Assembly (NCBI GenBank): GCA_051362555.1
Contig: CM120641.1
Coordinates: 2,728,001 to 2,792,000, forward strand
Source of the DNA: Lingula anatina
Taxonomy: Eukaryota > Animalia > Brachiopoda
Reading direction: 5' to 3'
DNA: 64,000 nucleotides
The translations under genes and the position numbers were made by a program. Of the stretch, positions 1 to 38,503 are shown piece by piece. The notes under the pieces were generated by a model. That model saw nothing but the letters and a program-made list of their open reading frames with translations. It had not been told where the DNA came from and did no database searches. Each line of letters begins with the position of its first letter. Within the stretch, counting starts at the first letter, position 1.

Positions 1-184
1 TATTTTGACGTATATAATACGATATGTGGCATAAACAATTTAATTATTGCAAATATATTTTGAGACAGAACGAGTTGCTTCCACATAATGAACTTTGAAT
101 CTTAAGAATATGACATATCTTCCCACTTCCTCTTACTTCCGGTGAGGAGAGCATGCATGAGTAGAGTGAGTTTGGCTTTTTGAC

Positions 185-1642: not shown

Positions 1643-2050
1643 TACTTGGATCTAAAATGTAAATCATGACTGGAAAAGCTTTTTGGGTATAAAGTAGATT
1701 GTATTACAGTGCATCTGGATGGATTATTAATAACAAATTATATTACTTGAATGCTTGTTTTTCTTTAATATAAATATATTAAAATACATTTGGTACTGAT
1801 GGAAAAAATTACTTATAAGTTTGAAACATACAGTTAAATTAATCTTAAAGATGACAACCAAAGTATTTTTATACAAAAACTTTATTATTGACCTTCTTTG
1901 TAGTCTAAAGTCTCAACATTCACATTCTGACTTAAATTTAGTCAACCTAATACTTAAAGATGTACTCATTTCTTGATAAATGAAAACAAAGGATCATAAT
2001 GTAGTTATGTTATTTACATTTAACCCTCTTTCATGGCATGTTACCAGCAT

Positions 2051-3989
2051 TCAGTCTGTTCTCCAAATTTTTTGAACATTTTCAATTGCTTTTTTGGGAT
2101 CATTTTTATGAAACATAAAATATCCTTGAATCTGTGCAGCACTAACATCCTGACCATGTGACATAACACAGTCGGCAAATATTGTTGCTTCTTCTTGATT
2201 TTGATCTGGGAAGAAGCGAAGAAACATTTGTTCAAGTTGATACTTTGTACAAAAGTCAATTTTCTCTTTCATGTCCACTCTTCCAGGTCTTATCAAAGCT
2301 GGTGGTAGCCTGATAAAAATAAAATGGTTGATTAACAGGGAAAAAAGTGTATATATTATTATAAGTATTTGTCTTTGGAAATAGTCATTACACTACTGAA
2401 ACTATATTTTTCTTAAATTCCTAATATTTTGAATGACCATACCAATATACTTGTACTGTACATTTTTTTTTTACAAGTGATAATTACAATGAATACCTTT
2501 CAAGGTGGTTAGTTGTCATAAAAACTATTCTTCCCTCTGTGGATGCCACTCCATCTAAGGCATTAAGCAGCCCACTAAAAGTGAGGCTCCCCATGCCTGC
2601 AAACCTATCTGGATCTGAAACAAAAAAATAGCATTTTGATGCTCTATTGTCACCAAGCACTTTTTTGAGGAGCTTTAAACATAATAAACAGACTCTACTT
2701 TAAATAATTGATGCAGATTTTAGAGCACATGTTTTTGCTTATATTTCAGAGATGAATCCTAATTGAAATATATAAGATTAATATTCACCCTCTCTGGACA
2801 TGTCCCTTCCAGCGACTGCTACATCGACATCTTCTAATAGTATGATGCTGTCCTGTGGTGCAATACTCAGGAGATAATTCAGTCTATCATCTGTCATACC
2901 TATTTCACTAAGGCTCAAAATGCAAATGCTAAACTGCAATTCACCTAAAAACAAGATAACAGCATGTTAATTATGACAACCTGCACCTTGACAATAATAC
3001 ACCATATTTTGTCAAAACTATTCAGTTCAGGATAAGCATCTACTACTATGTGATTAATCACTTAAAAAACTCAGACTAATAGACCTGTTAACTTGGGTAC
3101 AGTAACTATGTTTTTACATCAAACAAAAAACTGCTTTCACCCCCCTCCCTTCAGATAAAATACTTCAAAATTTGTAGGAACAAGATGGTTTAATATAACT
3201 TTTAAGAATCATTTTTCCCAATTTCTTTTCACAGGAGGAAACTATGTTGTTTATACCTGCCAAAGCTGTAATAAAACTGGTTTTGCCACAACCAGGTGGT
3301 CCATAAAGCAAATAACCTCTTCTGTATGGTATTCCCCGAGCTGAGTACCATGGCTGATTACTTATAAACTCTTTCACATCAGAAACTATTGATTCTTTAA
3401 CACCCTCTTCTAGGACTACAGAACTCAGTGGTCTTGGTGTTCTCGGAAATCCAAACTGCCTCCATTCTGCTCCTTTGGCTATATAGGTTATCAGTTTCCC
3501 TTCTATACTGTCCAGTGCTAACATGCGAGCTTCTTCCAAAATATCAAAGAATATAGATCTGTTGTTTCCCAGTGCTATGAATGTAACTGTTTCCCAGGGG
3601 TTTTCTCTGTGTGCACCGGTCATTTGTTGCTCCCGAACCCTTTCTACCTTGATCCAGTTTTTCTTGTATCTAAAGAAATGATCTCCAGGACTCGGGATAA
3701 AATTGTATTTTGTTGTTAACTTCCCAACATCATTTTGAGAAATAGAGGTGTCAACGCTTAAATGGTGTGTTTTGGTGCCTCTTACAGATATCCATTTCAA
3801 GATCCACTGATAGCTTACGTCTTTGCTGGGAACTTCCATTGAAATCATGCAGTGCCTACGGAAGAGTATTGTCGCCACAACTAAGCCCTTTCGTAAGACG
3901 GCGGCTCCCGCTCCCAAACCAGCAAGACCAAATCCTGCCCCAAAGTAAGGGTTGTCTCCAAGAGATGAAAACAACTCAGCGATCGTCAT
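2051..3989 (-). CDS. BCS1L: Mitochondrial AAA chaperone BCS1, 4 coding exons, 421 aa
   Basis: Exons 3989-3257, 2944-2789, 2614-2497, 2309-2051 with GT-AG introns; 1266 nt in frame. Motifs [11 protein letters not shown], Walker [15 protein letters not shown], Walker [44 protein letters not shown]. Confidence 0.96.
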
Positions 3990-4325
3990 CTTCAGGACCT
4001 TTGTGGTAGATGACGAAAGCTCAATTCAGACTAGGCAAGGAAGTTCTTCTGCTCAAAAAAATAGCTGTTGTTTTCAACATGTTCAGGCCATGGGCGCTGC
4101 CATATTGTTCAATAGCAACGACTTAAAAATCTCCAGTTGAACTTCAATTCATTTTACATTAGACCTCAGACGTCCCGTTGACATGTACAAACTTTGTGAC
4201 GAGAAATAAAATTTGATTTTATTTATATATATTTCTCTCAATACACTTACATTTCAGTGGAAAATGTGAAAACTTGGGTTTGGTGTGTCTTGGTAGTCAT
4301 TACTTCTAAACAACGTTTCACGATT
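3990..4325. promoter_or_regulatory. Bidirectional promoter region BCS1L/NRDE2
   Basis: Divergent start codons 336 bp apart; local CpG retention; YY1-like GCCAT cores near 4087-4105. Confidence 0.65.
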
Positions 4326-7300
4326 ATGAGTGAAGACGAACAGCGCGCTGGACTTTTCCCTGCGTTCTCACAATATGCAACAACATCTACAAATGAAAAA
4401 CAGACATTAGGTCTTTTCCCTGCGTATCAGCAAAATACCGCAGAACCATCAGCCTCAGGTGAGAGCAAAGTCACGTGCCCGTCCTTGTTCGTGGTTCTGG
4501 TTGCCTAAAACGAACAGCGGTTCACTAGCGGCCGTTCACCTGTTCTCCTCTTATAAAATTCATTGGCTAGGGGAAAATATATTGCAATGACAGTGAGGTC
4601 ATTAATAGCTAACTTCAATCAAGGCGAGAAAAGCTTCCACAATTTTCCCTTCCACTTTTAAGTGTGTGTGTGTGGGGGGGGGGGAGGGGGGGGGGAGGGG
4701 GTATATATGTATTTGAACAAGGTTCCTGAAGTAGTAAACCCCAAATGCCTTATATGATATGCTAATGTTTTTCTGTTGGAAATTTCAGGTCATGATTGGT
4801 TGCACAATCCAAGTTTTAAAGCAGAAGATGCATATGCTTTGCAAATCTTACAAGAGGAAGAGGCAAAATTGAAAACTCCACATGAAAGCAGGTAAATGTT
4901 ACTTTTGTTAAAATTTTCTACCTGCTTGATATAACTTAATTTTGACAGTCATAATATGTAGCTGTATTACTTCCCTTAAAACATGCTTGTGTTTCAAAAA
5001 ATAAATAAATAAATAAATAAAAATAAAAAAGAGAAACCCAGTAAATTGTACCATTGAGTTTAGTTTAACATTTTATATCTAGACAAAAATTTATGTCAAA
5101 CAGTGATTAGCATCATGAAATTACCTCATTTTATAAAAACAGAATTGTTGGTAAATTTTACTGTTCAACAATTCAAAGTTTAATTTCGTTTCAAAATCTG
5201 GACAACATATTTATATAAGACAATGGATTATTATGTACAGACACAGATGTGTCTGTACATATTGCCATCACCTGTGTCTGTCGTCGCCGTCGCCATCCCT
5301 GTCGATGTCGCCGTCGCCGTGCACTTTCATCGTTAACACGATAAGTGGAAGACAGTTTTACTTTTTGGCTGTATATTTACAGAGCTGTTGAATATTCATA
5401 AAACGCAGGTCAAGTTCGAAAATCAGCATGTTTAGGCCATTATTGTAGAAGTTATGCTGTTTTTTCACTTTTCAGCATATATGCAACACTGTTAACACAT
5501 TTTAAGGAAAACCGATAGGCCTGTTGTCATGAAACTCACAGGAGTAATCAATCTCACTAAAATACAGGTCAAATTCGAAAATCAGCATTATCGGGCCATT
5601 ATTTTAGAAGTTATGCTGTTTTTTTCACATTTCCTCAAATTCAATTCTTAGGCATGTTAATAGTCTCATTATTTAACTAATAAGATACATAAAGGTGTTT
5701 GTTTGACATTTCCTGCATCTTTACAACATTGTTAGTTGATTATGTAAAAATGATGGTAAACTTGTTATCGTGTATTGTGTAATAAAGTGTCAAAAATGGA
5801 AATAAACTCATATCATTGCAGTTTGTCAGATTCAATCATTCACTATGTTCAGAATCTCAGAATGGAGGAAATTGGACATTTAACACTATTCTATTTATAT
5901 TTTTCCCATCTCATCAATTTTCTTAGTTGATCATATAAAAATTGCAGTAAACTGTTTATTTTGTTTTATGTTAAAAAAAGTGTTAAAAATGGAAATAAAC
6001 CCATGTCAGAACAGTGCTGTCTTGTTTCACATTTCCTCAGATTCAATTCTTAGGCATGTTAACAGTCTCATTATTGAACTAATAAGACATGTAAAAGTGT
6101 TTGGTTGACATTTCCTGCATCTTTACAACATTATTAGTTGATTACGTAAAAATGATGGTAAACTTGTTATCGTGTATTGTGTAATAAAGTGTCAAAAATG
6201 GAAATAAACTCATATTATTGCAGTTTGTCGGATTCAATCATCCACTATGTTCAGAATCTCAGAATAGAGGAAATTGGACATTTAACACTGTTGTATTGAT
6301 ATTTTCCCCATCTCATCAATTTTCTTAGTTGATCATATAAAAATGGCAGTAAACTGTTAATTTTGTTTTATGTTAAAAAAGTGTTAAAAATGGAAAAAAC
6401 CCATTTCAGAACAGTGCTGTCTTGTTTACTTTTTGGCATTTTCAAGATGTGACTTTGAAGTTCCATGGTCCTGAAGAACTTTGCTAGTCACATTTTCTGA
6501 AAATCCATGATACGTATATTTCATTATTAAAAATTGATGGTCATTATGCTGTTAAGCATTATATAATATTGCATCAAAATAGAAGAAAACACAATTTTGG
6601 GTGCTGCTGCTATGATGACCATTATGGGTAAACCATGTTACTTATGATTGTCAAACTTTCAAAAAAGAAACACAGGACTAAATTGCAGCCGAGTTGGAAA
6701 AGCAGTCTGATTTGCTTCTTTTTCTTGTAGTTACACATTTTAGTGAAATATTCATTTTTATCATGTTGGCATATTCATTGTGGGACTCAGAGCTCCCATG
6801 GACATAAAGCCGAATGGTAACCAAATTTTCTACATGTCCATGCTATTTATAGTCAATAATTGGTGATAATTATTCTGTAATTGATTATGTAATGTTACAT
6901 CAAAATTGACAAAAATGTACTGCTACTACAAACATGAAAAGAAAACTGTGTTACTTATTATTATTATTTTTAACTTACAAGTATTATTTGTAGGATTGGC
7001 ATGCAGTTCAAATTAGAAAGCCAGCTCAATTGGGTTATCATTTATTATTGAATTTATGCAATTTTGTGTAAAATTTTCATTTTTCTTATTCTGGCACTTT
7101 CAAAGTGTGAACTCTCATGGGCCTGAAGCCTTATGCTTGTTTCACATTTTACTTACATTGGTATTACCTGTTGAGCATAACTAAAATTTGATGTTGAATT
7201 TGCAGGTAAGCATAATGTACTTTTGTATCAGAATTGACAGTAGCCTATTTTTGTGCATTGTTGTTTTCTGCTTTTTGTCTGTACATTTGACAGCTTTGCT

Positions 7301-10300
7301 GCCTTGTTTTTAATTGTATGTTCATATTTTTTGTAGGTCTTCTAATTCAGAGGAAGAGGAAGAAGGAAAAACTCTTACTGTGAGAAAAAGTGTTGATGAA
7401 GGTAAGAGTGATATGAAAAAACTCTGTGGTTATAGTAACTTCTGTTCGTGATATTAAATCATTTATATTTACATTCATAATTTTATAACAAATTTTTTGA
7501 AAAGTAAAAAAAATCTTGAATTTAGATGTGTGCAATTATTGTTTTAGTGTCTTGTAAATGCATGCTTTATTGTAAGCTAAAATGTGATTTTTTGCATATG
7601 GTATACTGTTTTTCTCAGGTAAATCAAAAAGACATCATGATGATGAGGATGACAGCAGGTATATGGATAGAAAGAGAAAAAAGAAAGAAAAGAAAAAATC
7701 CAAGCATAAACATAAGCATAAAAAGGAACACAAGAAACATAAGCATGATAGGCTATCAGATTCGCCGGAGGTATTATTGGATAAAGAGAGGTAGATACAT
7801 GTGTTTATTAGAAATATACATAATAGTGTTGAGATTTTGATTTATTTACAAAAAAATATGTTAAGATGGATTAAAAACACAATTTACTTCCAAGATGTTT
7901 TTGGTTAAAAATGTATATACTGTGCTGTGTAAATTTTAGGTTCAGGATTGAGACTGAATCGGTTCCTCCTGGTAGCTCAGGAAAGATATTCATTGAAGAC
8001 ATTCCTGACCTGCTTCCTGAGCATGCTTTCCGTGTTGACAGGAAGCCAGACAAAAACAACATCATGTATGGCTCAATATACAAGCAACACATTGCAAGGT
8101 CTAGGAGCAAAACTGGGAATTTCTGCCTTGGACTTAATAAAAATCAGACATTCCTCTGGGACAGTAAAAGTAGTGAGTCAAGGAAGCATAAAGATAATAG
8201 ATATTTTAGCAATAGAAAGACACTGAAAGATGAAGAGCAGCCTGCAATTGACTTATCAAAACCAAAATTAAAGTCTGGTGCAGATAAACCTTTTTGTGGT
8301 GAGACTGTGGAAACCTTGCCTTATCTCTCAGTTGAAGTCAGGCCAGTAGAAACTTTGTCTGGGGACAAAGAATACAACCCTCTTGGTGTTTATGATGAAT
8401 CTACTGCCCTCTGGGCCCAGGGAAAGGGTCTCAGTAAAACTGAAGATCTCACACCTGTCACAGTCCAGGAAGATACTCTAGTAGAAACACATGAGCAGTA
8501 CATTCAGAGAAGAACTGCCGAGTACAATAAACATACAAGAGAAAACCCAGGTGATATCAAGATGTGGTTGGAATTTGTTTACTTTCAAGATGAGACAGTT
8601 GCCAAAGACCAGGAGCTGTTTAAACCCAGTGAGCATGAAAAGCGGAAGAGGAGAGAGTTGTTTGTTCTTGAAAAGAAAATCTCTATTATTGAAAAAGCAT
8701 TGAAAACCAACCCAGCTTCACTAGAGTTGAAAATGAAACAGCTGGAGTTATCTGCTCTGATTTGGGAGGCAGATAAATTACATTCTGAGTGGGAAAACCT
8801 TGTGTTTCTTCATCCCAACAATCCCCAATTGTGGCAGAAATACTTAACATTTATTCAGTCCAGATTTAGCACATATTCTACCCCAAAGACATTATCTGCC
8901 TTCCACAAAGCACTTCAGGTACTGAATGGGCTTGTGATTGGGTCCACAAAAAGTCACCCACTCTTACCCTCCACTGAGGAACATATGATAGGTGAGTTCA
9001 TATGGGAAAAGTCTAGAAATACAATGTTTCCCATCTTATTACACATTTTATGTATATTCAGAAACTTAAATCACAATAAGTTTTTTTTCTCTAAATGTTT
9101 TGGGTGAGTTTAACTTATCGATCTGTCAGAATCTATTTAGTCTTTCTGTATAGACTACATTTTTAGGACTTTTCAATGAGATGTGTACCTTTTTGAAGCA
9201 AGCAGGCCAAATGGAAAAAGCCATAGCATCTTTCCAAGCTCTAATAGAATTTAACCTGTGTTGTCCTGAGTCACTGATGGCCTTGCCTCAGAAAGACAGG
9301 TTGGATGTCTTTGAAGCATTCTGGGACAGTGGAATGCCTCGGTTTGGGGAGACTGGGGCCATTGGATGGGCAAATTGTGTGAAAAAAAAACCCTTCCACT
9401 GTTCACCTATGAGATATAAAAGTAGGTGCATTGTGATCAAATTGTTTGAGTTTTAAAGCTGTATGAGATCTGATGTTTTAAACTCTCCTTTCCCCACAAG
9501 TTGGAAAACAAAATGGCTTTTCATTATTTTGAGACTACTACTTTTGTTTGTAGTTAAGATTTGATGTTAAAATAGTAATTTGAACATTTGAGATAGAATT
9601 TGTGTAATTTCGTACATTAAGGTGAAGAAGATAATGCACTGGAAGATGCAGTTATGGAGAAGCAGTTGGGAAGATGTGCCACGTGGCTGGAGTTTGAAAA
9701 GATAAGGCAGTCCAGGCACATGTTACCATGGCGACCAGACGTGGAAGAAGGGGAGACTGAAGAAGATTGTGAAGATCCAGACAGACTTGTTTTATTTGAT
9801 GACATTGTGCCTTGCCTGTTTGTGATATCTTCACAAAAACTGAAGTTCAGCTTGATAGTCTGTTTCTTGGATTTACTAGGAGTAAAGAATGAGACACTGA
9901 CACAAAGCTCTGTACAAACATGCAGAGAGAGGTTCTCTTTGAAAGTTGAGAGTGCAGAAGAAATTTTTCAGGGTGAAGATGAACTGTATGGCATGGTGTC
10001 CACAAGTGTCAAACTTGATAAAAACTTCCATCAAATATTTACTAGAAACATGTTTTCTCAAGCATCTAAAGTCTTCTCAGGAAATGGACAGGCTTTACTT
10101 ACATTAGCATGGGTGGAATATGAAATCAGAACTATTCTTGGGAAAGAAAATGCCAAAGAACAAAAGCAGGCCACAAAAGAACTCAGAAAAACTGTCAAAG
10201 GCATGCTGAAAGAAAGCAACAATAGAAATAATCTTATCTTATGGGATGTGTATGCGAGCCTGGAATGGCAACTAGGTAACGTAGAAGAAGCTGTCCGGAT

Positions 10301-12668
10301 ATATGACACTGCCATTGCTATGAACTCACAGAACTATGTGAATTTGCCTGAGGATAAGAAGACTGGAGTGTGTAGGCTTTATAGAAATTATGCTAAATTG
10401 ACTCTAGGGCTGTGCAATGAGGAGGGTGGGCAGTCTGAAAACGGTGCTAAAATTTGTGATGTCTCCAATGAAAGGAAAACTAAAGCACTTCATATACTAT
10501 CTTGCCTTGGTGATGATGGGAAGTATGAAATAAACAAACCAATGGCTGATGTCCCTGGAACCAAACTGTTGAAAGCTAGAAAAAATTACCAAGTGATACT
10601 GGAAAGTACACTGGATGCATACTTCAATGTGGGATCACATGGGATCTGCCCAGAGTGTGACAGCTTCCTGGCTGTATGGACGGAGTGTTTTGCCTTATTT
10701 CAATACCTCACAGTCAGCATGCAGGCTGCATCAGTGGTATTTGGACAAGTGCTGTCTAAACTCAAGGATAAACTGTCATCTTGTGACATGGAAACAGAAG
10801 TGAGTGATGTGTGCCCCTCCCCCTCACGGTTGCAGGTGGACCATGAAGAAATAATGAAGGCATTTGTGAAGCTTGTTTTTTATCACCAACGGACGTCCAT
10901 TTTACCAATGTCTTTTGCTAGGTAAGGTGTTGTGTTTATTATAGATACAAGTGTCAACACTTGAAGCATGTTATCAACACATGTTGGTCATTCAGCATCT
11001 GAAATTAAAAACCAACGTGTTGGTCTGAAATAAAAGACCAACACATGTTGGTCTTTAATTTCAGATGCTGAATGAAAGTGTAACTTGTAGTATGAAAAGT
11101 AATGTTATCAAAGAAATACCATAGGTTTAAAAAGTGGAATGAGTTTTTGATACACATATCAATTCAGTAATAAATGTTGATTATGTTTTTGCCATTTATA
11201 TGGTTTGCTCAACATGAAATTTTCAGATCCACACTTCTCCTAGCCTTGAAGGACTACCCAGAACATCCATACTTCTTGCGCCTGTATATCCAGCTGGAGT
11301 CTCAGTCTCATATATTGGGGAACTTGCGTATGTACTTTAACAAGGCTGTCAAGACGTGCTCCACATGTATACCATGGCTGATGGCAATACATGCAGAGCT
11401 ACTGAGACAACAGAAGATAGAACAAGGAATGAATGTTGGACCCAGTGCATTAGCAGGTGCTCCAGGTAAATCATAAAATTATATATATCTGAATCTGTTT
11501 TAAATGGCCTGCAGCATCAAAATTGACATTTCCAAAATGCTACAATTTACATTTTATTGGATGATGTACAGGGGAGTACAGCGTTACATTGTTTTTCAAT
11601 TTTTTATTCCATAATTATGATTTGAGATTTGATGTATGACTGTGCATGAAAACGAAAAGTGAAAACAAATGATCAGGCATTTAACACTGTAATTCTGAAT
11701 ATGTAATTCATTTTAACTCTTAACTGTACTCGTTCAAGGTTATGCTCACTTGCATTGTAGGTTGGGTTAGTGCATCCATTCCACAGACTGGCATTACACA
11801 CAAACTGCGCTCAATATTTGAGAGAGCTGTGGAAAGCACATCTGGACAAAACTGTATCTTGTTATGGAGATTATATTTGAGATTTGAGGTAAGGTTTTAC
11901 AGTGGAATACCATAGTTTGTTGAAGAATTGAGATTTAAAAAGGATCGATTGAGATTATTGTAAACATCACATGAATAGCTTTTATTTATTCACTCATCTG
12001 TGCATATTTTAATATTGTTATATTTGACTAAAACAGTCACATTTTTGTATAAATGGCAGTCAGGTCAAGATAGTTGATACTAGCATATGTCCTAAACAGA
12101 AGTCTCTGTACTGTGAGGACATCTCTTAATAAATTTTATAGTTCAACTTTGTGTTGTTCCAGGTGTCCACAGAGGATGTTCACAGGTCAGAAGGAGTGTT
12201 CTACAGAGCACTGCAGGATTGCCCATGGGCTAAAGTATGCTGCTAGCGTGAAACATTGTTCAAGAACAAGTCAGATAATTTACTTAATTATTAAGATTCC
12301 CGTTATGATTCACACCATATTTTAAGTGTCATTCATAAGAAGCTGCCCGCAATGTGTCAGCGAGAGAGACTTGAGCATGTCAAAAAACTTCTAAAATGCT
12401 GTGTCATCTTCCTCTACTTCCGTAAAATTTTGCCATATTAATTCATCAGCCATTGTTAGGACATCTACTGAAACTTTATTGTACTCATCTTTTCCAGAGT
12501 ATATACATGGATGGCATTCAGTACTTTCCAGACAGACTACAAGAGATAACAGATCTTATGGCGGAGAAAGAAATCAGAGTCCGCGCCCCACTGGAGGAGG
12601 TCGACCTCCTCATTGGTCACGAAGCCAGTAAACAAGATGACAATGACAGTGATTGTGGAAATGATTAA
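4326..12668 (+). CDS. NRDE2: Nuclear exosome regulator NRDE2, 11 coding exons, ~1229 aa
   Basis: Exons 4326-4458, 4789-4891, 7337-7401, 7619-7790, 7940-8991, 9167-9421, 9622-10921, 11227-11465, 11761-11888, 12163-12234, 12498-12668; all GT-AG, 3690 nt in frame. Motifs LFPAF, DWLHNPSF, K/H-rich tract, FRVDRKPDKNN, YNKHTRENPGDIKMWLEFV, EDPDRLVLFDDI, FYRALQDCPWAK, EKEIRVRAPLEE. Confidence 0.94.
5228..7310 (+). mobile_element. Non-autonomous Helentron/DINE-1-like (HINE-type) element in NRDE2 intron 2
   Basis: 5' inverted repeat TATGTACAGACAC (5232-5244)/GTGTCTGTACATA (5249-5261), then a (GTCGCC)n microsatellite, ~160-bp core repeats (CAGGTCAAGTTCGAAAATCAGCAT at ~5406 and ~5564), and at the 3' end the sub-TIR TGTCTGTACAT (7276-7286), a short stem-loop GACAGCtttGCTGCC and a T-tract. 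Confidence 0.8.
5623..6427 (+). repeat. ~401-bp near-identical tandem duplication inside the HINE-like element
   Basis: TTTCACATTTCCTCA.ATTCAATTCTTAGGCATGTTAA starts at ~5623 and ~6025; both copies end in ACAGTGCTGTCTTGTTT (6011-6027, 6411-6427). Confidence 0.92.
10988..11075. repeat. Foldback palindrome with nested palindromes in NRDE2 intron 7
   Basis: TCATTCAGCATCTGAAATTAAAAACCAAC is the reverse complement (1 mismatch) of GTTGGTCTTTAATTTCAGATGCTGAATGA; internal ACCAACgtGTTGGT and AGACCAACacatGTTGGTCT. Confidence 0.85.
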
Positions 12669-13448: not shown

Positions 13449-14655
13449 TTATTCTTTAGTTGCTTTTGTCTTTGATTTGCCCTTGGCTTTCTTTTTAAGT
13501 CCATCAATATTTGCCTTTAATACATTTGCATATGCCTGGAAATATAAAATACACATCTATCATTGGCAATTTAAACTCGGATATGTCTTATTACTTCAGT
13601 CTTATTATAAAACTTCACTGGCACCAAAAGATGAAGGTTAATGTAATTTTCCTTACCATTTGAAATTTTGTAACGTCCTTGTGTGTAACCTAAAATTTGA
13701 AAAAAAAAATATTCAATTAATACAAATAATGGCTAATTTGCACCTTAATCAAAAATGTCACCAAATCAAGCATTTTAATTATATATAAACCAGTGAATAT
13801 AACATTCATTTAACACTACCACTACATAAATTTATACAGATGTAGGTTAAATTTTAATAAAACTGCTGACATCAATGTACAGTAGTTAATTTATAATTTT
13901 ACAAGGTGGGATTCAACATAAGATATTCTTAGGTACATATTACATTTTACACAAAAATGAGAGAAAAAAATTCATCAGTTTCTTCCCATATCACATTTAT
14001 TCAATACATACTACTGTTGAAATCTTTTTATTTCCCACTGTTGCTCTGAAGAGACATTTGTAGTCAATTTCTTCAGGATGTGATGTAGATTTCTTTACTT
14101 TTGGTTTTGGTTTATTCTGACCATCATCTGAAGAAGATTTACAGTGGTGCAAAGATTAAAAATGATAAAATCCGTTGCTCTGCTAGACATCCTTGCATAT
14201 TACATTAAGCATAATCAATCCTTCTGAAAAGTAGCCATTGAAAAGCACACACTGAAACATATGTCAATTAGAGTTAAAATCAAAATACAAGTTAACTTTT
14301 TTGGAAGGCATCTCTAAAAGACAATCATGGTGAATTACAAGCACAACTTGAAATTAGTTCATACTTTGTGAGTTCTCAGGCCAATTATATTAATTTATTT
14401 GGCTAGGATTACCCCTAAAAGTTGAATCAACCTACAACTTTTAAAGACAGGTATGAATACTTACATCTCTTCATTGTAACCACCACGGATCCAGATGGTT
14501 TGGCCTTTTGATAAAGTCTCGTGAGTTCACTAAGAAACTACAAAAGAGAAAGGGAGGAAATTCGGTTACATAGCCAAATATTTTGCAAACATGCACGAAA
14601 ACAATATCAGAAAATGTCATATTTCACTTACAGCATCGTTCTCCAGTAGTACCAT
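13449..14655 (-). CDS. SRP14: Signal recognition particle 14 kDa protein, 5 coding exons, 110 aa
   Basis: Exons 14655-14632, 14537-14465, 14127-14012, 13689-13657, 13535-13449 (333 nt). Translation: MVLLENDAFLSELTRLYQKAKPSGSVVVTMKRYDGQNKPKPKVKKSTSHPEEIDYKCLFRATVGNKKISTVVTHKDVTKFQMAYANVLKANIDGLKKKAKGKSKTKATKE. Confidence 0.96.
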
Positions 14656-14865: not shown

Positions 14866-17800
14866 ATGGTAGAACAAAAAGAGATGAATCTAACAGAGGA
14901 TGAGGCAGCACTGTACGATCGGCAGATTCGATTGTGGGGCCTTGATGCCCAGAAAAGGTAAGCAATTATGAACAAAAAAATTGATGAAAGCACACAGATG
15001 TACCATGCAACAAAAACATTGTCAATAACAATAACAATGAACAACTTACATTGAAATTGTAACTAAATAAGTGTTACCATGAATAACAATCGCCATGCCA
15101 AACACCTATATATTTTTGTAAAGTAAAACAAATTAAACGTCCTTTTAATTAAATTGATTCATGTTTTCAGTATATTAACAAGGAATTGTTTTTGGGTTTT
15201 TATCAATACATACGGTGTGCTATGTAAAAAAAAGACAAGAAAGCTAGAGATTTTTAGATTAGTTTGACCATATTTTTTTGTAAAACTTGACAAACCATTC
15301 CCACATGAAATTAGATGTTCCACTCTTGAAGAAACAACACTGACAGATCACAGCCATTTCAAGACTACCACAACCTTAAATGTACTGATATATCATTTTT
15401 TCCTCAGTTGTTTGACATAGCTATATCAGTCATTGTTAACTTGGTTTAAAATGTTTCAGATTGAGAGCAGCTAGAGTGCTACTGATTGGCCTCCAAGGAC
15501 TGGGAGCTGAGATATCTAAGAACATTGTGTTAGCTGGGATAAAGTCACTCACACTGATGGACCATACTGTGGTAAATTGTTGTTGTTGTCTAAATTCCTT
15601 ATAAATATTTCTATGGCTAAACCAGTCATGATCAATGATTACTTTTTTATTTTGGTATTTTAAAAAGAATTACCCTATATCTTTAGTTGGTGTCATTTGA
15701 CAACATGTGCAGTGAATACATTTAATTTAGATTTAGACGCCAACTCCCATTGTGGCCTAGGTTTAACATCATGTGTTGAGCAATTCTATAGTTAAGGCGA
15801 AGAAGTTTTTCAAATTAATTTAATTTCGACATTTTTTTTATTTATCTCTAAAAATATGTGTATAGTAAAATTTGTATTTGAGTTTGTTAAAGAGTCTGAC
15901 AGATTCAGTATTGCTGCATAGACTTGTCTATAGATTTGTAGATGAATGAATGGTTTGAAAGTGGAAATGTTTAAAGACAAAATGGTATTATGACTGTTTT
16001 TATTATTATAATTACAATTACTGAATTGTCCTTTTATTTCTTTTACATTTTAAAATAAAGATCATTTTAAATGATATTTTTGCTTGTAATTATCTTTTTA
16101 TTTTCAGGTGACAGAAGAAGATGCATGTTCACAGTTTCTCATACCAAGGAGTAAAATTGGTGAAAATGTATGTTAACTATTTAAAAAGTTTTGTGGCATG
16201 ACTTCATTAAAGTAAAAGCATAATTGTGCATTATATCAATTGACATTAATGTGTGTGATACATGTGAAACTCATTTTTTCCCTTTTTTTTTAGCTTGAAA
16301 ATAACAACAGGGATATCCTTAAAATCGAAGTCTTAATATGAAGACATACTGCTAACGTTTTACCAGTACAATACCAATCATCTGATATAATCAACATCTA
16401 AATTTCCAGAGGGCCGAGGCATCTGTTGAGAGAACTGCCCTGCTTAATCCAATGGTAGAGGTGACAGCAGACTCCAGTGATATTGCTGAAAAAGATGAAA
16501 CTTTCTTTCAAAATTTTGATGTGGTTTGTGCAACCAATCTGATCAAAGACCAGCTCCTCAGGATAAACTCTATATGTCACGAAAACAAGATAAAGTTCTT
16601 CGCAGGCGATGTTTTTGGTTACCATGGTTTCATGTTTGCTGACCTGAATGAGCATGAATATGCAGAGTGAGAGTCTTCAAGTTCACATTATAAAGATGAC
16701 AGTGGGTTAGATTTCTTTAACTTGGATTTTTTTTTTTTTTTTTTTTTTGGGGGGGGGGGGGGGGGTACATTTGCAGGCAAGAGGCAATAATCCTGGTCTT
16801 GGTCTGAAAATCTTTCTGTGATTTTCGTCATCTTCTGTTGCATATATTTCATAACAGAATTCAGCCTTTTTGAAGGTGGAGAAATTCTATATCTTATGCA
16901 TCTAAGTTGAGATATTTTCAGACAATGCACTGCTTAAAGAAACCTTACAAAACATATTAATGCTTTAAGGTAAATAGTTATTAAAATATTCCTCTGAAAC
17001 TTCTAGGGAAACAATCAAGAAGAAAAAAGAAAGTGGAGAGGCTTCTGCAAAAAAAGCAAAAACGCAAGAAGAAGAAACAGTTGTTTCCAAAAAGGTAAAT
17101 ATTTACCCGCTGAGATATTTATATTGATATTTTCAACTTGTACCAGTGGATGAATCTCAGTTTGTATTACAATATGTAGAGGTTTTATATTCTAAATGGC
17201 ACCTTAGATCAGTAAACAATGAAGGGAATGGATCTATTTACGGTTAGGGCTAAATGCTAGATTACTGGAATCCCTAAAACTCCTTGCTTGAAATTCAAGT
17301 TGAATGTATTCAAAAGTTAGTTTGCATGATCATTTACTTCTGTTCTTTTTCTCCAGTCGATGTCTTTTGTAAGATTAAAAGAAGCACTGGCTGTGGATTG
17401 GAGTTCAGAAAATATGTCCAAACTACTGAGAAAAGTACCTAAGACATTCTTTATCATACAAGGTAAGATCAATACGAAGTTATTTGCATCTCTTTCGTTT
17501 GTTATGCAATTCATTCATTTATTAGTTTATTTATTTATGATTATTATTTCAGTACTTATGTCATGTTTTACAACCAGTGTTGACTATGTTTTGTGTCATT
17601 GTTTTTCAGTTTTACTCAAATTTAGAGCTCAATACAAAAGGGACCCTTCTCCAAAGTCCAAAGAAGAAGACGTTGTCAACCTGTTGAAATCAAGGGATCA
17701 AGTGCTGGAGGAACTGAAGATTAGCAAAGATTTTGTTGATGATTCTTTTGCCAGGTGAGAGTGGCAAAAAATGAAAACAAAATGAAATTGACTAAGAATT

Positions 17801-19560
17801 ATCTTTTTTTTTTCATTTTAAAGCTTTGTATTTAAGTGACAGTGATATTTATCCTGTTATGTGCAATAGTGATACTTATTTATACCTTTAAATGTATTTA
17901 TATGGTCTGTGAATAGGTTAATTTGATTTTCAAAATAATAGTGTTAGTGCTGAAAATGTTCTGTTGATTACCACCTTGTTTTCAATAGAATGCTACCTTA
18001 AAACAGAAGAATCCAACCAATCAAAACGTGAATTAATTGAAAAGTTATAAATGTTTTCTTTTAAAGAAAGAGCAAATTGCTCACCTTGCTATTTTTAAGA
18101 AAATAAACATGTCAGTATTTTTCTGTTGTTTAGCTACTGTTTTGCTGAACTCAGTCCAGTTTGTGCAATTGTTGGAGGAGTCTTTGGGCAGGAAATCATA
18201 AAGGTAATTTTTTTTTGGAAGGTATATAATAAGAATTCTAGAAGATAAAATGCATTTCTCAATTATCACCAAATTAGTTACTGATTTAGAGGCACATAAT
18301 TTTGTTTTAAAAGATGATCATAATATTTTTCAAAAAAAGAAAAAAGTAATAATAAATGGTTAATCAACCAGCTGTTGCAGCACATTTTTAAAAAGAATGT
18401 GATTTTTTAAATTCAATTATGTTGCCTTAACTGCTTAAAGGCTTGCATTTCAAGGCAAAATTTGCTTCATTGTCAGTCTTTCTACATTGGTGCACATGAG
18501 AGAGAGACAGTGAGAGAGTTTTTCTAGAAGTTCAGATGTCATCCATCTCATATCTTATGGCTTTTTCTGAGGTGTGGCTGAGACACAGTTTGCTTTATCA
18601 CAAAAGAAATGTCACGGTCCGTGTAACACAGGCATAAGGATATGTTGCTAATGGCTTGCTGCCTCAGAGACATAAGAAAGAATAATAGACCAGTTCCTGA
18701 TGCAATGTCTGGCTTGAGGTCCTTTGAAATGAGTTCATTTTCTGGGAAATCAATTTCTCTTAAAACATTGTACAAATATTTGTCTTGACTCTTAGTCCCT
18801 GAGGCTATTTGCCATGGAAAGTGATATGTTTCAGCGTTTCAAAGATTTTTGGGAAAACAGGATTTGTGCCATGTTTTAACGTTGGATTGCCAAGATCTTG
18901 AGAAGTGGAATAAAAGGGGTTGTCATTAAATCAGTTTTGAGAGTAAATGGGCAGTGGGGAGTTTTAGTCATGTTTAGGTTAACTTTTTTCATGTATTTTC
19001 TATAGAGAAGGGAAGCCTTTCCCAGGATCATTGATTTATATTGTGACAGTTTTTGCAGATCGCCTGCAGATATGTAATCATTTCCTCGTGCAAACTTTTT
19101 TTGTCTCTCACCTTTTTCCCTGTAATTAAACAGTACATATGTATTTGCCTCTGTAACACATTGTACCCTTGACCTAGCGCTAAGCTTTTCATGGTACATC
19201 CAGATTTTGCTCTTTGGTCAAAGAAGTCGTCCATCAGATTTGCTTAAACAAAACCGTTGAAGTATAACACCATTTTATGTGCTTGTGTTCTGTAGATCTT
19301 TCAGTATTTTGATTGCTTAAGTGGTTCTATATTTACTTTTGTGTGATTCAGTAGTTTTATTCTGTACATCTTATTTGTTTTAACAGCTCCATGCCTACAC
19401 AAGCCATTTTGTGTTTTTCCCCATTCCGATGACTTGTAAAATATATCCTTTTTTATGTTTGTTTAAGGCTGTTTCACAGAAGGATGCACCACACAACAAT
19501 TTCTTTTTCTTCAATGGTCTTGATGGAAGTGGAATGGTGGACTGTATAGGCAACAGTTAA
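14866..19560 (+). CDS. SAE1: SUMO-activating enzyme subunit 1 (Aos1), 9 coding exons, 340 aa
   Basis: Exons 14866-14957, 15460-15571, 16108-16167, 16410-16666, 17007-17094, 17357-17462, 17610-17754, 18134-18203, 19468-19560 (1023 nt). Motifs EAALYDRQIRLWGLDAQKRLR, GLGAEISKNIVLAGIKSLT, FFAGDVFGYHGFMFADL, ELSPVCAIVGGVFGQEIIKAVSQKDAPHNNFFFF. Confidence 0.96.
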
Positions 19561-26998: not shown

Positions 26999-28725
26999 TG
27001 TCGTTACATCTTTTTAACCCACTTATCTCCATTGCTCTCTTTTCTATTTCTCTATAGTGGTTCGTATTACATTTTAAACATTTCGTCGCTTCAACCAATT
27101 TTCGTCTCTACGTTAATTTTGCATGTGGGTGTTTAACAACCGGTAGTGAACAATTAGTTCTTATCACGATCTCATATCCCTCTTCCATCTCTTCAGCGGC
27201 GGTTTGTAACTGCCGGCGCTCAACTTTTGATCGTTTTTGCTTTCTTATGTATTTAATTTGCTTTCACAATAAGTGTGTTTCATCCTATATGTCGACCAGC
27301 ACCGGTAGTCATTATCATTTATCTTTCTATCTGTTGTCTCATTTTTATCTCTTTAACACGAGTTAGTACCTGTCTGCTCACCGAAGTTGGCGTGCAGAAG
27401 TACATGTCAAACACTTGGAGAGTCCCGAGTATTAACATAATGATTCTGTGCGAGTCGCCCGGTCCCATCGGGATCAATAGGCGCTTATCAAGATGAAGCA
27501 TCAATGCTTATTATAAAGCACCGATAACGCTCATATTTCACCAGCACCTGCAATTTCCAGTGTTTGCGGTGAACAAGTAGTTTACACATCATTCGTGGTA
27601 GATAAGACAAGATTTGTCTGATTTAGACCTAGTGGTCAGTGCCCATTCACCCGTAGGGCGTGGTGGACATCAATAGGTCCTGACCGGTTGATATATTTAT
27701 GGTCTATTGTTCGAGAGTCAGTCTATTCTATTTTTTATTTTCAACCAGCGATAAATCATCCTCAGAACCTACTTTTTTCATGACTCATTAAATCGATTGT
27801 GCCCTCACATCTCCGTGCATTGTATACTTATTGAAATGCGGCATAGCGATACTGCAATTGTTTTTGATACGAAGCTTTTGGTAGGAAATACATTTTACCA
27901 TCAATATTACTCGGTTTTTGATCATCTACAAATGTTACTATATTCCCAGAAAAATGGCCGTTTTGTAATCTATAAGAAGAATATTGTCCACGGTACTCCA
28001 TTGGTATTTCTATGCTATGCGTTATTTTGCAAAAATAATTTATTGTTTTTCATAATTAATATAGACGCAGAGAACGCATAGAGAGCAATTTGTCACGAAC
28101 TGTCGGTATTTGTAGTTATAGCATATTTTAATCTAGAACCTGTGACATTTTCTGGGGTAGTGTAATTGGACAGAATTTGAAAAGGCAAATAAATTATAGA
28201 AAGTAGAATATCCAAAGCCTTCGCTGGCGCTCTTCATAGTAGGTGCATTGACAATATGTAATACATGTAGGCAACATTTTACTCATACATCTGCGATAAT
28301 TAAATTTAAACATTGCACCCTTTTTGCAATAGATATTTGTGAAAGTGAGCCAAAATTTGTTTGTCATGCCGTTGCAAGTCCGGCGTATCATTGTATCATT
28401 TGGCATGGTTTTCCGAGCACTAGTGAAGAGCAATTTTTCTTACTAAAGAGTAGCGTATTGATGGGAAATGATCTAATACTAATCTTTAAAAGACACCGCA
28501 GGTTAGGATGGGATGTAAACGTGTGATGCAGTCTCTCAATAGATCCTCAGTTATCAACCTGTGTTTTCTATAAAAGAAAATACAGCTGTGTGATTCACTG
28601 TATAAACCGACGTAGAATGAATTTCCAGATAAGAAGCCGTAACATCAAAGGAAATGTAGAGATCTAATCTTGGTTTAAATAGCAGCAATTGGAATACTCA
28701 CCAGAGCTATTACATTAATTGACGT

Positions 28726-28899
28726 GTTTCTTAGACTATTTCTTGGCATCAGAAATATTCGCATTATTGCTATAAATTATGTATGACACACCAAATAATT
28801 AGATTATCTACTGTTTCTTAGACTATTTCTTGGCATCAGAAATATTCGCATTATTGCTATAAATTATGTATGACACACCAAATAATTAGATTATCTACT
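28726..28899 (+). repeat. Perfect 87-bp tandem duplication
   Basis: GTTTCTTAGACTATTTCTTGGC...AGATTATCTACT at 28726-28812 and again at 28813-28899 with no visible mismatch. Confidence 0.95.
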
Positions 28900-30869
28900 T
28901 TTCAAAACTGAATGGTTGCAATTGTAGAGTTTTTTGTCCACTCTTCGAAGCTTTAGCATGACCTTAATGAAAAACGAAATCTCTTTTTCATACTTAGAAA
29001 GGTTTTCTCATACAGTTACTCTGTTACTCAATCAAAATCACAAATTGTTTTCTGATACGTGCATCTTCTCCTTTTTTTAGTCAAGAGAAAAAATTTAGAA
29101 AATACCTGCGACGTCTGGTAGGAAAATAGGACAAAAGCTCGTGTCACTCTAAAATTTCAAAACAAATTATATATTTGAAACTTAGTCACATGAGTTGAAG
29201 GTTTCGCATAAATTCGCAAAGGACAAGCTTTTAATTCGATTATCGTTTTTATAAGGATGTACAGTGAAACTGAATCACTTAATGTTAGAAGAGAACTCGC
29301 GCACGAGGGAGAAAGTTATGGCATTTGACATTCTCTCTTGACTGAAATATTTTTACGACCCACCGGCGCACGTATAATTATCAGTTAACACTACGGTTTT
29401 TTTCACATTATCATCAACGGCACACGTCTGGCTCGCCTGCCACGGTGAACTGTCTGCGCCACTTAGGCTCTTGATCGGGATTTCACGATAACTCACAGAC
29501 AGTTATTGTTCAATGCTAGACCCTTGTCGTCTTGTTAGCTGTTTTCACCTCAGTGTAGGGACATTTGTCTGAATCTCCTGCAACGAAAACCGTCTGGTTC
29601 AAATGCTGTCCGGGATGCAAAATTAGTTTTATCACTGCTTTTTTTATTGTGCTTTTTACATGTTTTCTTTGTCGGTAATGGCCATTTCCTTACCTAAAGT
29701 GATTTGTTTCACGCAGAGAGAAGACTGTAGCGCTATGAATTATTTTGGAATGATGCTAGTTAAAAGGTTCTTTTCAAATTGATAGGAAATTATTACTCAT
29801 CCTTACAGATTTTTTTTACAAAACAAAATTGGTGTATTGCAAACGGTAGCAAACTGCCAGCGGCTTTTTTCACAGGTAATTTAATGGCACTTGCCATAAA
29901 ATTTGTTGGCAGGGCATTTGTTTCTGCTTCTCAGTTTCTGACATGCATCAACACTGAATGACGCTTTGCGACAGTTGCTTTCAACCGGCCACCATTCATT
30001 TAAGGATATATCACAGTGTACACAACGAGTATAACAAAACACGCTGCAATAGTCTGAGAAAAAAAAACGCATTTACAGAGTAGCCCCTTCTCTGCCTTGC
30101 GGTTAAAACTAAGGATCTTCGCAGGAGATATTTCATTTGCAAATAAACGTGCGATCGGATCTAATGAGTTTTGCAACACGCAAAAGAAAAAGTCCCGCTT
30201 TTATTGAGACTAATGCCGTGACACTAATTTTATCATCGCGTCACAGCCCAAAAAAAGAAAACTCACTTATCATCGACAATGTACCGGACACAGCTTGAAA
30301 ATCATAAAAGTCCAATTCCATCATTTTATATAGACAGATGGACTTAATTCCTGCGCTGGGAATTATCTTTGCAGTTTACTCACTGAAATATTGCCAGATT
30401 TGTATTGAATTGTTTACTCTGTTACTGTATATCATAGTCATCTGATGGAGGACTGATTAGAGACCCTACAATATTCTACATGCAGAAAGAAACAAATAAA
30501 TAATTTACATCCCAACTTTAATTTTTCATCTTGATATTTTTAAAGATAGAAGGACATGTCTAAGCAGGTCCATTCTTGTATGATTCCATTTTTTACGCTT
30601 GATAAACTGAAAGTTAAAAACATCTGCCGACGTTGTTAGAAAAGTCTATGATACTGATTTAAACTAAGAGTGGAAACCTGGTGTCACTTAGAATTTTATT
30701 TGAAGTCATAACAATACATCAAAGTGGGGGTGACTTCATGGGGTGAAACAAAAAATAGAAGATATTTATTCTGGACTGAATGTTCAACTTAGCTCTAAAA
30801 CTGGGGCCAACTTTACGATAGTGTACTTGTGGCAAAGAGGTATTCTGGGACATACAGTCTACTGTTAGT

Positions 30870-34605: not shown

Positions 34606-37083
34606 TCACGATTCTTCTGAATCAGAAGGCTCCGATTGTTCATGATGCACCAGACCGTCCCCCGTGTATCGTCTTTGTCGTTGAGGCTGAGGTGCTACGA
34701 GGCGGCGCTGGGAGAAGAAGTGTCTAATTCTGGTGAAGAAACCTACGTTATGGTGTCCAGTTCCTGGAAAAGATGAGGCCTGCTGGTCCTGCGGTTCTCT
34801 TTCCTGCAAGAGAAAAATCAGATAAAATTGTTATAACATGTTCTCACATAACTGATGACAAAGTCTGTTGTTTCTGTTTTTCCAACCTTTCTGATAAAAT
34901 GATAATAATGATGTTACTGCAATGCAGACTTTGCTCTACTTAAAATGGGTAAAAAAATTAAACAATAACAAAGATAAGATCAATCATTTTTAACAAACAA
35001 AATCTGATACCATAAAAAAGTCACAGATGTAGTCTACATGTAGATACATCGCCACTGCTCTGAGTCTAATGAGAAGAAACAAAGTGAACTTACTGGTACT
35101 TGGTATTCAGATCTGTATGACAAATGAAACTCGTCACTGATTCTCCTCAATTCCTGGCCAATTTCAGACTCTGTCCGGATGCGCCTGAGAGCGGGGACGG
35201 ACATTGCTCTTCCCCGAGACACAGGGACGATGTCAGGCAAAGGCATGGAGTCGGTTCTCTGTCTTGTTGCTTCATCCTCCACATCACCATGTCCAAGTCT
35301 GATCTGTTCAACTGCATTGCCTGGTAAATATTTAAAACAGAAAACTTAAACCAACACTCAAACACACGCATGGAGCCTTCCCGATTAGTTCAATTTTGAT
35401 ATTTTAAAAAAATAACTAAATAAATGGATCAATACAAAGTTCCTATCTACTGTTTATACATGCTTTTTCAGTGTCATAGCAACTAATGAAACAATTTTAT
35501 TACTTTCTGTATGAGGACATCATGACAGTTTAGATTTATTGAAGGAAAACTACTTTCCTTTTTTTACTGGATTTATCTTTACATGATTAGAGGTTAATTT
35601 ACATTTAAATCCTTCAATTATAAACAAGAAAACTTTCAACCTCAAACACTAAACACGATAAAGAAAATTCCCATTCAAGTTTAGGCATGTTGCAATAGAC
35701 AGGTGACTATGATCAATATGTAAATTGGATTCCCAATCAAAACAAATATTGCCAACTCAGTGAAAATGACCAACTGTTCCATTATGACACAAGAAATTTG
35801 GCAAAGCTTTACCCTGTCACCCATCTTATCTCAACGTAGTCACATACACAGGGCATGACATGTGACATAGGGACATTATTATCAACATAAATCAACACAT
35901 GCTGAGCAAGTTGTATCAGATAAAATGGAAAATTACACAACGTGGGTCATCTTTAATAAGAGCCTCAGAGCATAAAAGCGTTTGATTGTCCTGAACCTTA
36001 ATGTAAACTAATAGTTATTTTATACTGGTTCACCCAACTTGGTAATCTTAATTCAGTAAAACCACAAATACATAAATTCAAGTGCATTAATGTGGGAGCA
36101 TGGGAAATTTCCAACTCTCATGTTTCTTAACCTTAATTCTCATTTCACTTTTACACCAATGGGATTTACAAGCTTATTTCACATTTTCCACCACCTACAT
36201 ACAATTCAGTTATAGTAAATAAAATGAAACTTAACAGAATAAATATTTTTTTCTCATTGACATTTTAGAAATTGTATGGCTCATCCTAATTATAATGTGT
36301 ATACATATTACAGGTGATTGTGCAATTTGATAATAATTGTTTTTGTCTCTTTATATATATATATATATTCAAATGGGATCTTAATACTGTAATGTCTATC
36401 TTTGGTGAAATGATGTTGAATCAAGAAGCTGGTAGAATTTCTATACAGTTGCAGTATAATAATTATGACATCAAACTGATATGACTTGACTTACCAACAA
36501 AACTGATCCTTCTTGTGATCCCGTAAGCCCCACACAGAGGTCCGTGTTCAAACACCAGTTCTCCTCTAATAGCATGTGTCATCATCTGTCCTGCGATGTG
36601 CGTGGTTTGCGTGCCAACCTCACGACAATCGCACTGGCGCCCTGTAGCGTGGTCTAAGAATTCTTGGGGAAAGGATCCAGTAGAAAAACGGTGCAATAAT
36701 GGCGCTGGACGGGCGGTGCTGGGGGAAAGGCCAAGTGGCGATGGCACTTCTTGGTAAAGGGGTGCATTAGCGCCTGAGCGGCGCTGTGACCGTGACCTGC
36801 GGGGAATTGCGATAGGCTGTGAAACTGGAGTTGAGGCTCCTTGTGGTTCATCTTCAAACAACTGGTCTTGATCTTCTGAGGTAGTCTCCGTATCCCACAT
36901 CACTGAGGAGTCTCCAAATGTGAAATGTGACTTTTCCTGTAGAACATTACCCGGTGAGGCATAGCCACTGTCTCGTTTTGAAAGAGGTGACAGCTCTTGA
37001 CTTTTTACCCTTTGGTCATGTTTATCTCCTGTGTGAATTCTGTGCAATGGATGGGGTTTTGTCTTTTCAGTGTCTTTCTCCAT
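34606..37083 (-). CDS. BH3-only pro-apoptotic BCL-2 family protein (BIM/BMF/BAD-like), 3 coding exons, 337 aa
   Basis: Exons 37083-36495, 35320-35094, 34803-34606 (GT-AG, 1014 nt in frame). BH3 motif EIGQELRRISDEF, LC8-type motif CREVGTQT, DSGYAS, RQRTDSMP and RGRAMSVP in a low-complexity, probably disordered chain. Acceptor at 37112; probable non-coding exon 1 ending at donor 38009. Confidence 0.88.
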
Positions 37084-38009
37084 TTTTACATCTTATTATT
37101 GCAGCTCTGATTCTGAAAAATAGAGCAAACACCTAATTAAATTCTTTGAAATTCTGTTTTTTTGTTTTTTTTTTTTTGTAGATTCACCCCTTCGATTTTC
37201 CATGAAGTATTTCCCACAAACAGATTAGATTAATCTTGAAATGGTTTAAACTTTCAATTGTCTACGTAATACATATAGATGAGACACAAGTTGCTATGTT
37301 TTAGGCTACAAATCATAATATTAAAATCACACATACATACGAAAAAAAAAATGTACACGCAATTTTGATAAATACAAATACTAGTATTCCCATTTTTGTC
37401 TCTGAACAGTCTCAAGTTTTGCAATTTTTTTCAGAGGTAAAAATCAAAAGCTTGGGTTTGACGATCAACAATGTTTTAGTTAAACTTTAGGTATAAACAG
37501 GGAATATTGGAGTTAACTGCCAAGCAGTGTGATGATCAAAACTTAAAACTTGTTGAGGGTGTCAGAAAATTACATCTAAATCAAATCTTTTGGAACCATA
37601 AAAAAATTGAATCATAAAAAGCGATCAAAATGATACTTATACACTCATTAAAAACTCCCTAAAACAATCAACTCATTGAAACACCCTAAAACGATCAACA
37701 GTGATAAAGATCGTAATTAAATACCAATTAATTCACCTGTGAAAGTTAACCATAGTTCTTAATTGAAAGCTAATTAAGGCGAGTCCACAAATATTAACGC
37801 TGTAACATGATCAGAATCCATGCTGACAGCGACACGCTAGCTGCACATGATCGATATCAACTTCAATTTCATCCTCAGTGCGCCAAATCTAAACAAACCC
37901 GTCCATAATCTGATGTAATCTACGCAGGTAAATAAAACGGATATAAAATGAGGCTTGGCATTGTGAAAAAAAGATACAAGTTCATGTTTATATCGAACTT
38001 AGACTTACT

Positions 38010-38503
38010 GAACTTTGTCCTCAGTGTCAACACTTCTCCCGCCCAAACATAGCTCAGAATTTCTACTGAAGGTATTTAGCTTACGCTTTGTGTTTTGATG
38101 AGATCATCTGTTTACACCACGCTGAACCAATCACGGCAAAGGTGATTCCAAAAGTTTTTGACAGGTCCATGCACGTCCCTAGAGACTTAAGAGCCGCTGA
38201 CAAGAGTAGCAAGTTGCATGCTAAATTTATCTGTGTACTCTACAAATTTCCACTGACAAGATGTTCTAGTAAATGGTTTAAAATCTGATTGCTTGTTCTA
38301 ATTTCACAAATAAACAGCTAAGTTTATCCAAGGTCAACTTCACAATGTTGAAACTGCCACCAAAGACGTCATCGTTGTCAAAAATTCTCGCGAGATTGTA
38401 AAATGGCGGCCGCCACAAAATTGAACAATGTGTGGATTAGGTTGCTGTGTCCATGAATTCGGAAGTCATTAAGATGTAGTCACTTGCTCATCAAATTTAT
38501 GCA
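38010..38503. promoter_or_regulatory. Bidirectional promoter BH3-only gene / kinase
   Basis: TGTTTAC (FoxO-type) 38109-38115, CCAAT 38127-38131, GACGTCA (CRE-like) ~38365, palindrome TCTCGCGAGA 38386-38395, YY1 consensus AAAATGGCGGC 38400-38410, CGGAAGT (ETS) ~38460; lies between the first exons of two divergent genes. Confidence 0.75.

Follow-up and report, generated by a model that had tools for sequence, protein, structure and literature searches.

BH3-only ancestry is hard to trace because the proteins are short and disordered, and gene order offers a handle on it that is independent of sequence. A 64 kb stretch of the Lingula anatina genome (contig CM120641.1 of assembly GCA_051362555.1, positions 2,728,001 to 2,792,000; hereafter the window) raises the question of whether death genes that are separate in vertebrates were once a single gene. 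The gene concerned, LOC106166313, had been predicted from the DNA sequence alone (the original prediction) to combine BIM/BMF-type and BAD-type modules in one invertebrate gene resembling their undivided ancestor. Conservation, Pfam matches and gene order support that reading, while its RRISF module, the form of its RQRTDSMP site, the position of its degron and a clean partition of modules among vertebrate paralogues did not hold. We consider it probable that LOC106166313 is transcribed and spliced into a message for a 337-aa, predicted-disordered and likely pro-apoptotic BH3-only protein, which is likely the unduplicated counterpart of BMF and PUMA, and probably that of BIM and BAD as well. 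The gene has for neighbours the two genes found next to vertebrate BMF and PUMA, so that these two death genes are likely to descend from one ancestor.

Gene structure and expression

The 337 codons of LOC106166313 are distributed over three minus-strand coding exons joined through GT-AG introns, and the product differs from the NCBI model (L. anatina, 337 aa) at one residue: position 228 is I in the window and L in the record. Every motif named in the original prediction is found in this spliced product where it had been placed. The RNA check proposed there, carried out on four raw sequencing runs labelled as the same species, reveals both coding joins in reads: 34803/35094 in 31 reads from all four runs, and 35320/36495 in 24 reads from three of them. 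In the 5' untranslated region the join 37112/38009 occurs in all four runs and 37112/37737 in two, and minus-strand RNA covers the gene in two stranded runs. No exon-skipping join is among those listed for the four runs, nor is a read shown from them that contains both coding joins. Coding-region read variants are silent in 21 of 27 cases against an expected 23% (p 4e-9, for the best supported 40 of 61 variant rows). The RNA joins and this excess of silent variants establish LOC106166313 as a real gene under selection. In run X9 the stop codon at window position 34606 is replaced by Cys in four of four reads, a change that would lengthen the protein by three residues. Both X7 and X9 diverge by a few percent from the window and resemble another population.

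Features of the predicted protein

By every testable feature of its sequence the product of LOC106166313 qualifies as BH3-only, with a predicted BH3 helix containing the Leu and Asp, predicted disorder and no BCL-2 fold. The residues L254 and D259 are invariant in all 25 aligned sequences. The Lingula protein scores 26 bits with the BIM BH3 model PF08945 (cut-off 25) and 18.1 with the BAD model PF10514, which is under the cut-off of 28.2, and gives no match to the Bcl-2 Pfam domain. AlphaFold2, supplied with a 25-sequence alignment, returns a disordered chain (mean pLDDT 55, pTM 0.26) with helices at residues 163-172, 244-268 and 292-306. The BH3 is located in the penultimate exon, in line with the rule for BH3-only genes given in PMC7022251. 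When the family profile is compared with the PDB, BIM and BAD BH3 peptides are tied at the top, followed more weakly by PUMA and BMF. The structure matches from the ESM Atlas all have TM scores of 0.30 or less and its feature scores are under 0.9; both are leads only.

Chance was assessed by 100,000 shuffles of the protein, in which a degron appears in 2.3%, TQT in 9.8%, two RxRxxSxP sites in 0.03%, a strict BH3 in 0.002%, and the combination of degron, TQT, RxRxxSxP and a loose BH3 in 0.006%. The two basic Ser sites and the BH3 Ser of Lingula correspond to S221, S237 and S258, spaced by 16 and 21 residues. The RRxS pattern arises in 29% of the shuffles and RRISF, regarded as a module in the original prediction, is carried by none of the 25 relatives described below; it is probably a chance occurrence. 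The tail had been described as amphipathic and without a transmembrane anchor. The latter stands, as no transmembrane segment is detected in the Lingula protein (best 19-residue hydropathy 0.63). The amphipathicity does not: the hydrophobic moment is not above that of shuffled tails (p 0.65), and only two of 26 family members reach a p below 0.05. A count of tails with a moment of 0.5 or more (25 of 26) was rejected as a measure, shuffles giving 21 of 26.

Conservation among invertebrate relatives

Searches identified 41 non-self relatives (cluster members omitted), and the removal of 16 under 240 aa as fragments left 25. Where a source is named it is a bivalve, gastropod or cephalopod, or else Lineus, Tubulanus, Owenia, Watersipora or the hemichordate Ptychodera. 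Twenty of the 25 have degron, TQT, RxRxxS and BH3 in this order (the groups found include molluscs and nemerteans, an annelid, a bryozoan and a hemichordate). A DSGxx[ST] motif, mainly DSGYxT, is present in 21 and TQT in 24, one relative reading VSRGTQT, the phage-display optimum of the LC8 motif (PMC3078936). The distance from degron to TQT ranges from 120 residues, as in Lingula, to 251. All 25 carry RxRxxS beside the BH3, with a +2 Pro in 23, and 19 carry a second, upstream RxRxxS, with a +2 Pro in none. The upstream site lies 19-32 residues before the second in the relatives and 16 in Lingula, where the sequence aligned to it has decayed. Of the two 14-3-3-type sites originally proposed, the RGRAMSVP site is hence shared by the family and the RQRTDSMP form is specific to Lingula; likewise the conservation check suggested at the time bears out the order of the other modules and not RRISF. 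The BH3 Ser is present in 22 of 25 and is replaced by Gly in three scallop proteins, so that the residue appears to toggle. An S[FYL]P motif follows in 17 of 25.

As the relatives were chosen by likeness to the query, bias was checked with nine that matched over one stretch only, lying outside the N-terminal motifs. Six of these have the degron and eight TQT, against shuffle expectations of 0.36 and 0.40. This, combined with the conserved motif order, indicates that the mixed architecture is, as far as sequence motifs tell, a family trait and not a Lingula oddity. A profile search with the 25 sequences retrieved 18 proteins, including one new fragment, with no vertebrate, arthropod or cnidarian name among them, and exon 1 as a lone query matched solely the Lingula protein itself. 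The protein searches, as distinct from the whole genome, contain one Lingula-named match.

The top look-alike in the ESM Atlas (0.85 for Lingula and 0.88 for Ptychodera, leads only) is a mainly arthropod cluster of 119 members of about 247 aa, which are possible arthropod members of the family. Two named cephalopod proteins and one similar protein (P0013, P0026 and P0030) are far longer and contain Q/N/D runs as well as a second TQT-like repeat. The Octopus relative is recorded as 'transcription factor mef2A-like', a name that is probably wrong.

Gene order

In mouse, a physically ordered list has Srp14 as number 9 and Bmf as number 10 (PMC3435402), human SRP14 and BMF are common to the 15q15.1 locus (PMC6826789), and SAE1 and BBC3 (PUMA) are consecutive in two gene lists for 19q13.32 deletions (PMC8872157; also PMC5897035). 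Both SRP14 and SAE1 are found in the window (Table 1), head to head with their start codons 211 bases apart, which suggests a shared promoter. Human SAE1 and BBC3 presumably lie tail to tail, as do SAE1 and LOC106166313. The chance of both neighbour matches is roughly 1e-5 to 6e-5, a post hoc figure based on an assumed 16 target genes and 6 neighbours. PUMA, which the original prediction had not named, is the gene most directly linked through its neighbours. If an SRP14-SAE1-BH3 block had been doubled and each copy had lost one neighbour, SRP14 would remain by BMF and SAE1 by PUMA, and both adjacencies would thereby be explained. A common origin of BMF and PUMA thus has good support from gene order, in a single genome.

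Table 1. Features of LOC106166313 and its neighbours in the 64 kb Lingula anatina window.
Feature	Window position	Strand	Remarks
Coding exon 1	36495..37083	-	residues 1-196; acceptor at 37112, 29 nt before ATG
Coding exon 2	35094..35320	-	residues 197-272; second-to-last exon; carries basic Ser sites and BH3
Coding exon 3	34606..34803	-	residues 273-337 and stop
Two alternative 5' untranslated exons	37737..38200 (upper end approximate)	-	splice from 38009 or 37737 to 37112
DSGYAS (38-43)	36955..36972	-	beta-TrCP-type putative degron; consensus DSGxxS from PMC13097077
FTF (54-56)	36916..36924	-	conserved aromatic motif after degron
CREVGTQT (153-160)	36604..36627 (VGTQT 36618-36604)	-	putative LC8/DYNLL-type motif (PMC3078936, PMC6607443)
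RRIS(F) (191-194)	36502..36513	-	present, not conserved
RQRTDSMP (216-223)	35241..35264	-	upstream basic Ser site
PLPD (223-226)	35232..35243	-	LPD invariant in 25/25 aligned sequences
RGRAMSVP (232-239)	35193..35216	-	conserved putative 14-3-3-type site adjoining BH3; R, R and S invariant
BH3 helix (244-266)	35112..35180	-	core LRRISDEF (35150-35127); Ser258 in RRxS context
SFP (283-285) and predicted helix 292-306	34702..34773	-	no transmembrane anchor
SRP14	13449..14655	-	five exons located; adjacent to Bmf in vertebrates
SAE1	14866..19560	+	closest coding gene identified on 3' side; adjacent to BBC3/PUMA in vertebrates

SAE1 and the BH3-only gene are 15 kb apart, and none of 108 open reading frames of 48 aa or more in this interval has a Pfam match, a scan that left out frames touching one short stretch. 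On the other side a many-exon, widely spread DYRK/HIPK-type kinase gene occupies 39316-64000 on the plus strand; plus-strand RNA starts near 38100-38400, in a head-to-head arrangement with the BH3-only gene. Positions 170-12665 hold a gene for an RRM protein, which we take to resemble RNPC3, together with BCS1L (minus strand) and NRDE2, and local tandem duplications in non-coding DNA occur at 5399-6427 and 28725-28902.

Relationship to vertebrate BIM, BAD, BMF and PUMA

Resemblance to BIM (BCL2L11; PF08945, PF06773) resides in a BH3 that aligns to BIM peptides, in the TQT LC8-type motif (DKSTQT in BIM; TQTP in 19 of 25 relatives of the Lingula protein) and, at motif level, in the beta-TrCP-type degron. 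The Lingula protein differs in having Ser for the BH3 Gly, an extra RxRxxSxP by the BH3, a less hydrophobic tail and a length of 337 aa, and in showing no Bim_N match. With BAD (PF10514) it shares RxRxxSxP just ahead of a BH3 of the form GxELRRxSDEF, an upstream basic Ser site and the lack of a transmembrane anchor; unlike BAD it carries TQT and a degron, stays under the BAD cut-off and has Ser spacings of 16 and 21 instead of 24 and 19. The hemichordate relative, Ptychodera P0040, does match the BAD spacing: its serines 192, 216 and 235 are separated by 24 and 19 residues, identical to Ser75, Ser99 and Ser118 of human BAD (PMC8503815). It also passes both PF08945 (45.4, cut-off 25) and the BAD model (29.7, cut-off 28.2, model positions 61-145), a dual pass to be read knowing that Pfam seeds may hold invertebrate members; it reads DVRPEI where BIM has DMRPEI, has TQT, and matches the BMF model weakly. 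BMF (PF15185) is approached through TQT (EDKATQTL in BMF) and SRP14; its model has no match in Lingula and a weak one in one of 27 relatives (E 0.004). For PUMA (PF15826) the likeness consists of SAE1 as neighbour, weak model matches over the RxRxxS-BH3 stretch in three of 27 relatives and an Atlas lead, with no match of the PUMA model in the Lingula protein. We know of no TQT in PUMA.

The alternative that survives best, though it seems unlikely to us, is that the Lingula gene is an orthologue of the ancestor of BIM, BMF and PUMA only, BAD having arisen separately and its similar serines being convergent short motifs. Short basic motifs do arise easily, the neighbour links reach BMF and PUMA only, single-protein searches of the PDB give BIM as best matches, and the Atlas look-alikes listed, all under 0.9, include clusters of PUMA, BMF and BIM and none of BAD. 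Against this, with E values up to 2 the BAD model is matched by 21 of 27 relatives, in several of them far past the BH3, and in P0040 the match exceeds the cut-off and the serine spacing is exact; the Gly before and the Ser inside the BH3 are as in BAD, as is the absence of a transmembrane tail. We hold it improbable that this is instead a spiralian/ambulacrarian BH3-only family in which common motifs accumulated independently and from which no vertebrate BH3-only gene descends, with coincidental neighbours. Such an origin would agree with three sequence searches devoid of vertebrate matches, with the difficulty of assigning BH3 motifs by sequence (PMC7022251) and with a degron placed unlike that of BIM. 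It would leave the two independent neighbour matches and the DVRPEI/DMRPEI likeness and dual Pfam pass of the hemichordate to coincidence, and word-seeded searches miss fast-evolving disordered proteins. Least probable of all is a signalling scaffold whose BH3-like helix has no control of apoptosis in Lingula, since the BH3 Leu and Asp are invariant throughout the alignment and exon position and disorder fit BH3-only genes, even if the BH3 role is assigned from sequence, FTF, PLPD and SFP are conserved with no BH3-only explanation, and vertebrate BAD has non-apoptotic roles.

Several observations weigh against a common origin of all four genes. The gene order comes from one invertebrate genome, it revealed no neighbour that would link the gene to BIM or BAD, and a small or non-coding gene may lie in the 15 kb interval scanned by open reading frames only. 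The cut-off is passed by one of 27 relatives for BAD, by three for the BIM BH3 and by none for BMF or PUMA; Bim_N (PF06773) has no match in the 27 or in Lingula, and the set of 25 relatives includes close kin. The three sequence searches match no vertebrate full-length protein that could enter a tree or be aligned directly. Many peptides with TQT fail to bind LC8, and the Lingula TQT is devoid of the +2 Pro/Asp/Glu and of the -3 basic residue that are favoured (PMC6607443). The degron precedes TQT by 120 residues in Lingula as against no more than about 25 in BIM, where Ser93/94/98 are near Thr112 (PMC12363959, PMC4695108), and is missing from the Ptychodera protein; given this position and absence it may be convergent or have moved, so that the BIM-like degron of the original prediction persists as a motif and not in its place. 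Nor are the modules cleanly partitioned among vertebrate paralogues, as had been envisaged, since BIM has its own Akt/14-3-3 site, Ser87 (PMC4695108). Finally, BH3-only proteins have been described as polyphyletic (PMC11463336).

On balance we lean towards BIM, BMF, PUMA and BAD being four whole-genome-duplication copies of one bilaterian gene, situated in an SRP14-SAE1-BH3 block, with degron, LC8, 14-3-3 and PKA control in one chain; brachiopods, molluscs, annelids, nemerteans, bryozoans and hemichordates would still have this gene undivided. The inclusion of BIM and BAD is suggested by motif evidence.

Proposed mechanism

A working model can be drawn, in all its steps, from vertebrate biology. 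The BH3 helix would bind pro-survival BCL-2/MCL1-like proteins and thereby free BAX/BAK; Lingula has BAX, BAK, BOK, MCL1 and BCL-2-like genes (PMC11463336). Binding of LC8 to TQT would dimerise or tether the protein, phosphorylation of RxRxxS237 by an Akt/RSK-type kinase would recruit 14-3-3 beside the BH3, and PKA-type phosphorylation of Ser258 within it would block groove binding. The N-terminal DSGY degron, once phosphorylated, would route the protein to SCF-beta-TrCP. Once the vertebrate genome had doubled, the modules retained would have differed between copies, with TQT in BIM and BMF and the triple-serine block in BAD.

Relation to earlier work and implications

BH3-only candidates from Lingula, Octopus, Crassostrea, Mizuhopecten, Lottia, Saccoglossus and echinoderms are named in the Fig. 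5 legend of Suraweera et al. 2022 (PMC8998228); they cover the same taxonomic range as the present family and probably include the LOC106166313 product. In that study the BH3 region alone was aligned, the terms 'dynein' and '14-3-3' do not occur in the text, and its available passages hold no argument on shared origin or gene order. The available part of PMC3238295 names no BH3-only duplicates, and a literature search, most subscription journals lying outside it, found no paper in which the combined architecture or a link through SRP14/SAE1 is argued.

Binding partners beyond those known are suggested by the invariant PLPD and by the FTF and SFP motifs. If the common origin of the four genes is true, half of the mammalian BH3-only genes would have one origin, and the split between sensitiser (BAD) and activators (BIM, PUMA) would have arisen via partition after duplication. 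An upstream trigger of mitochondrial apoptosis would then have been named for molluscs and their kin.
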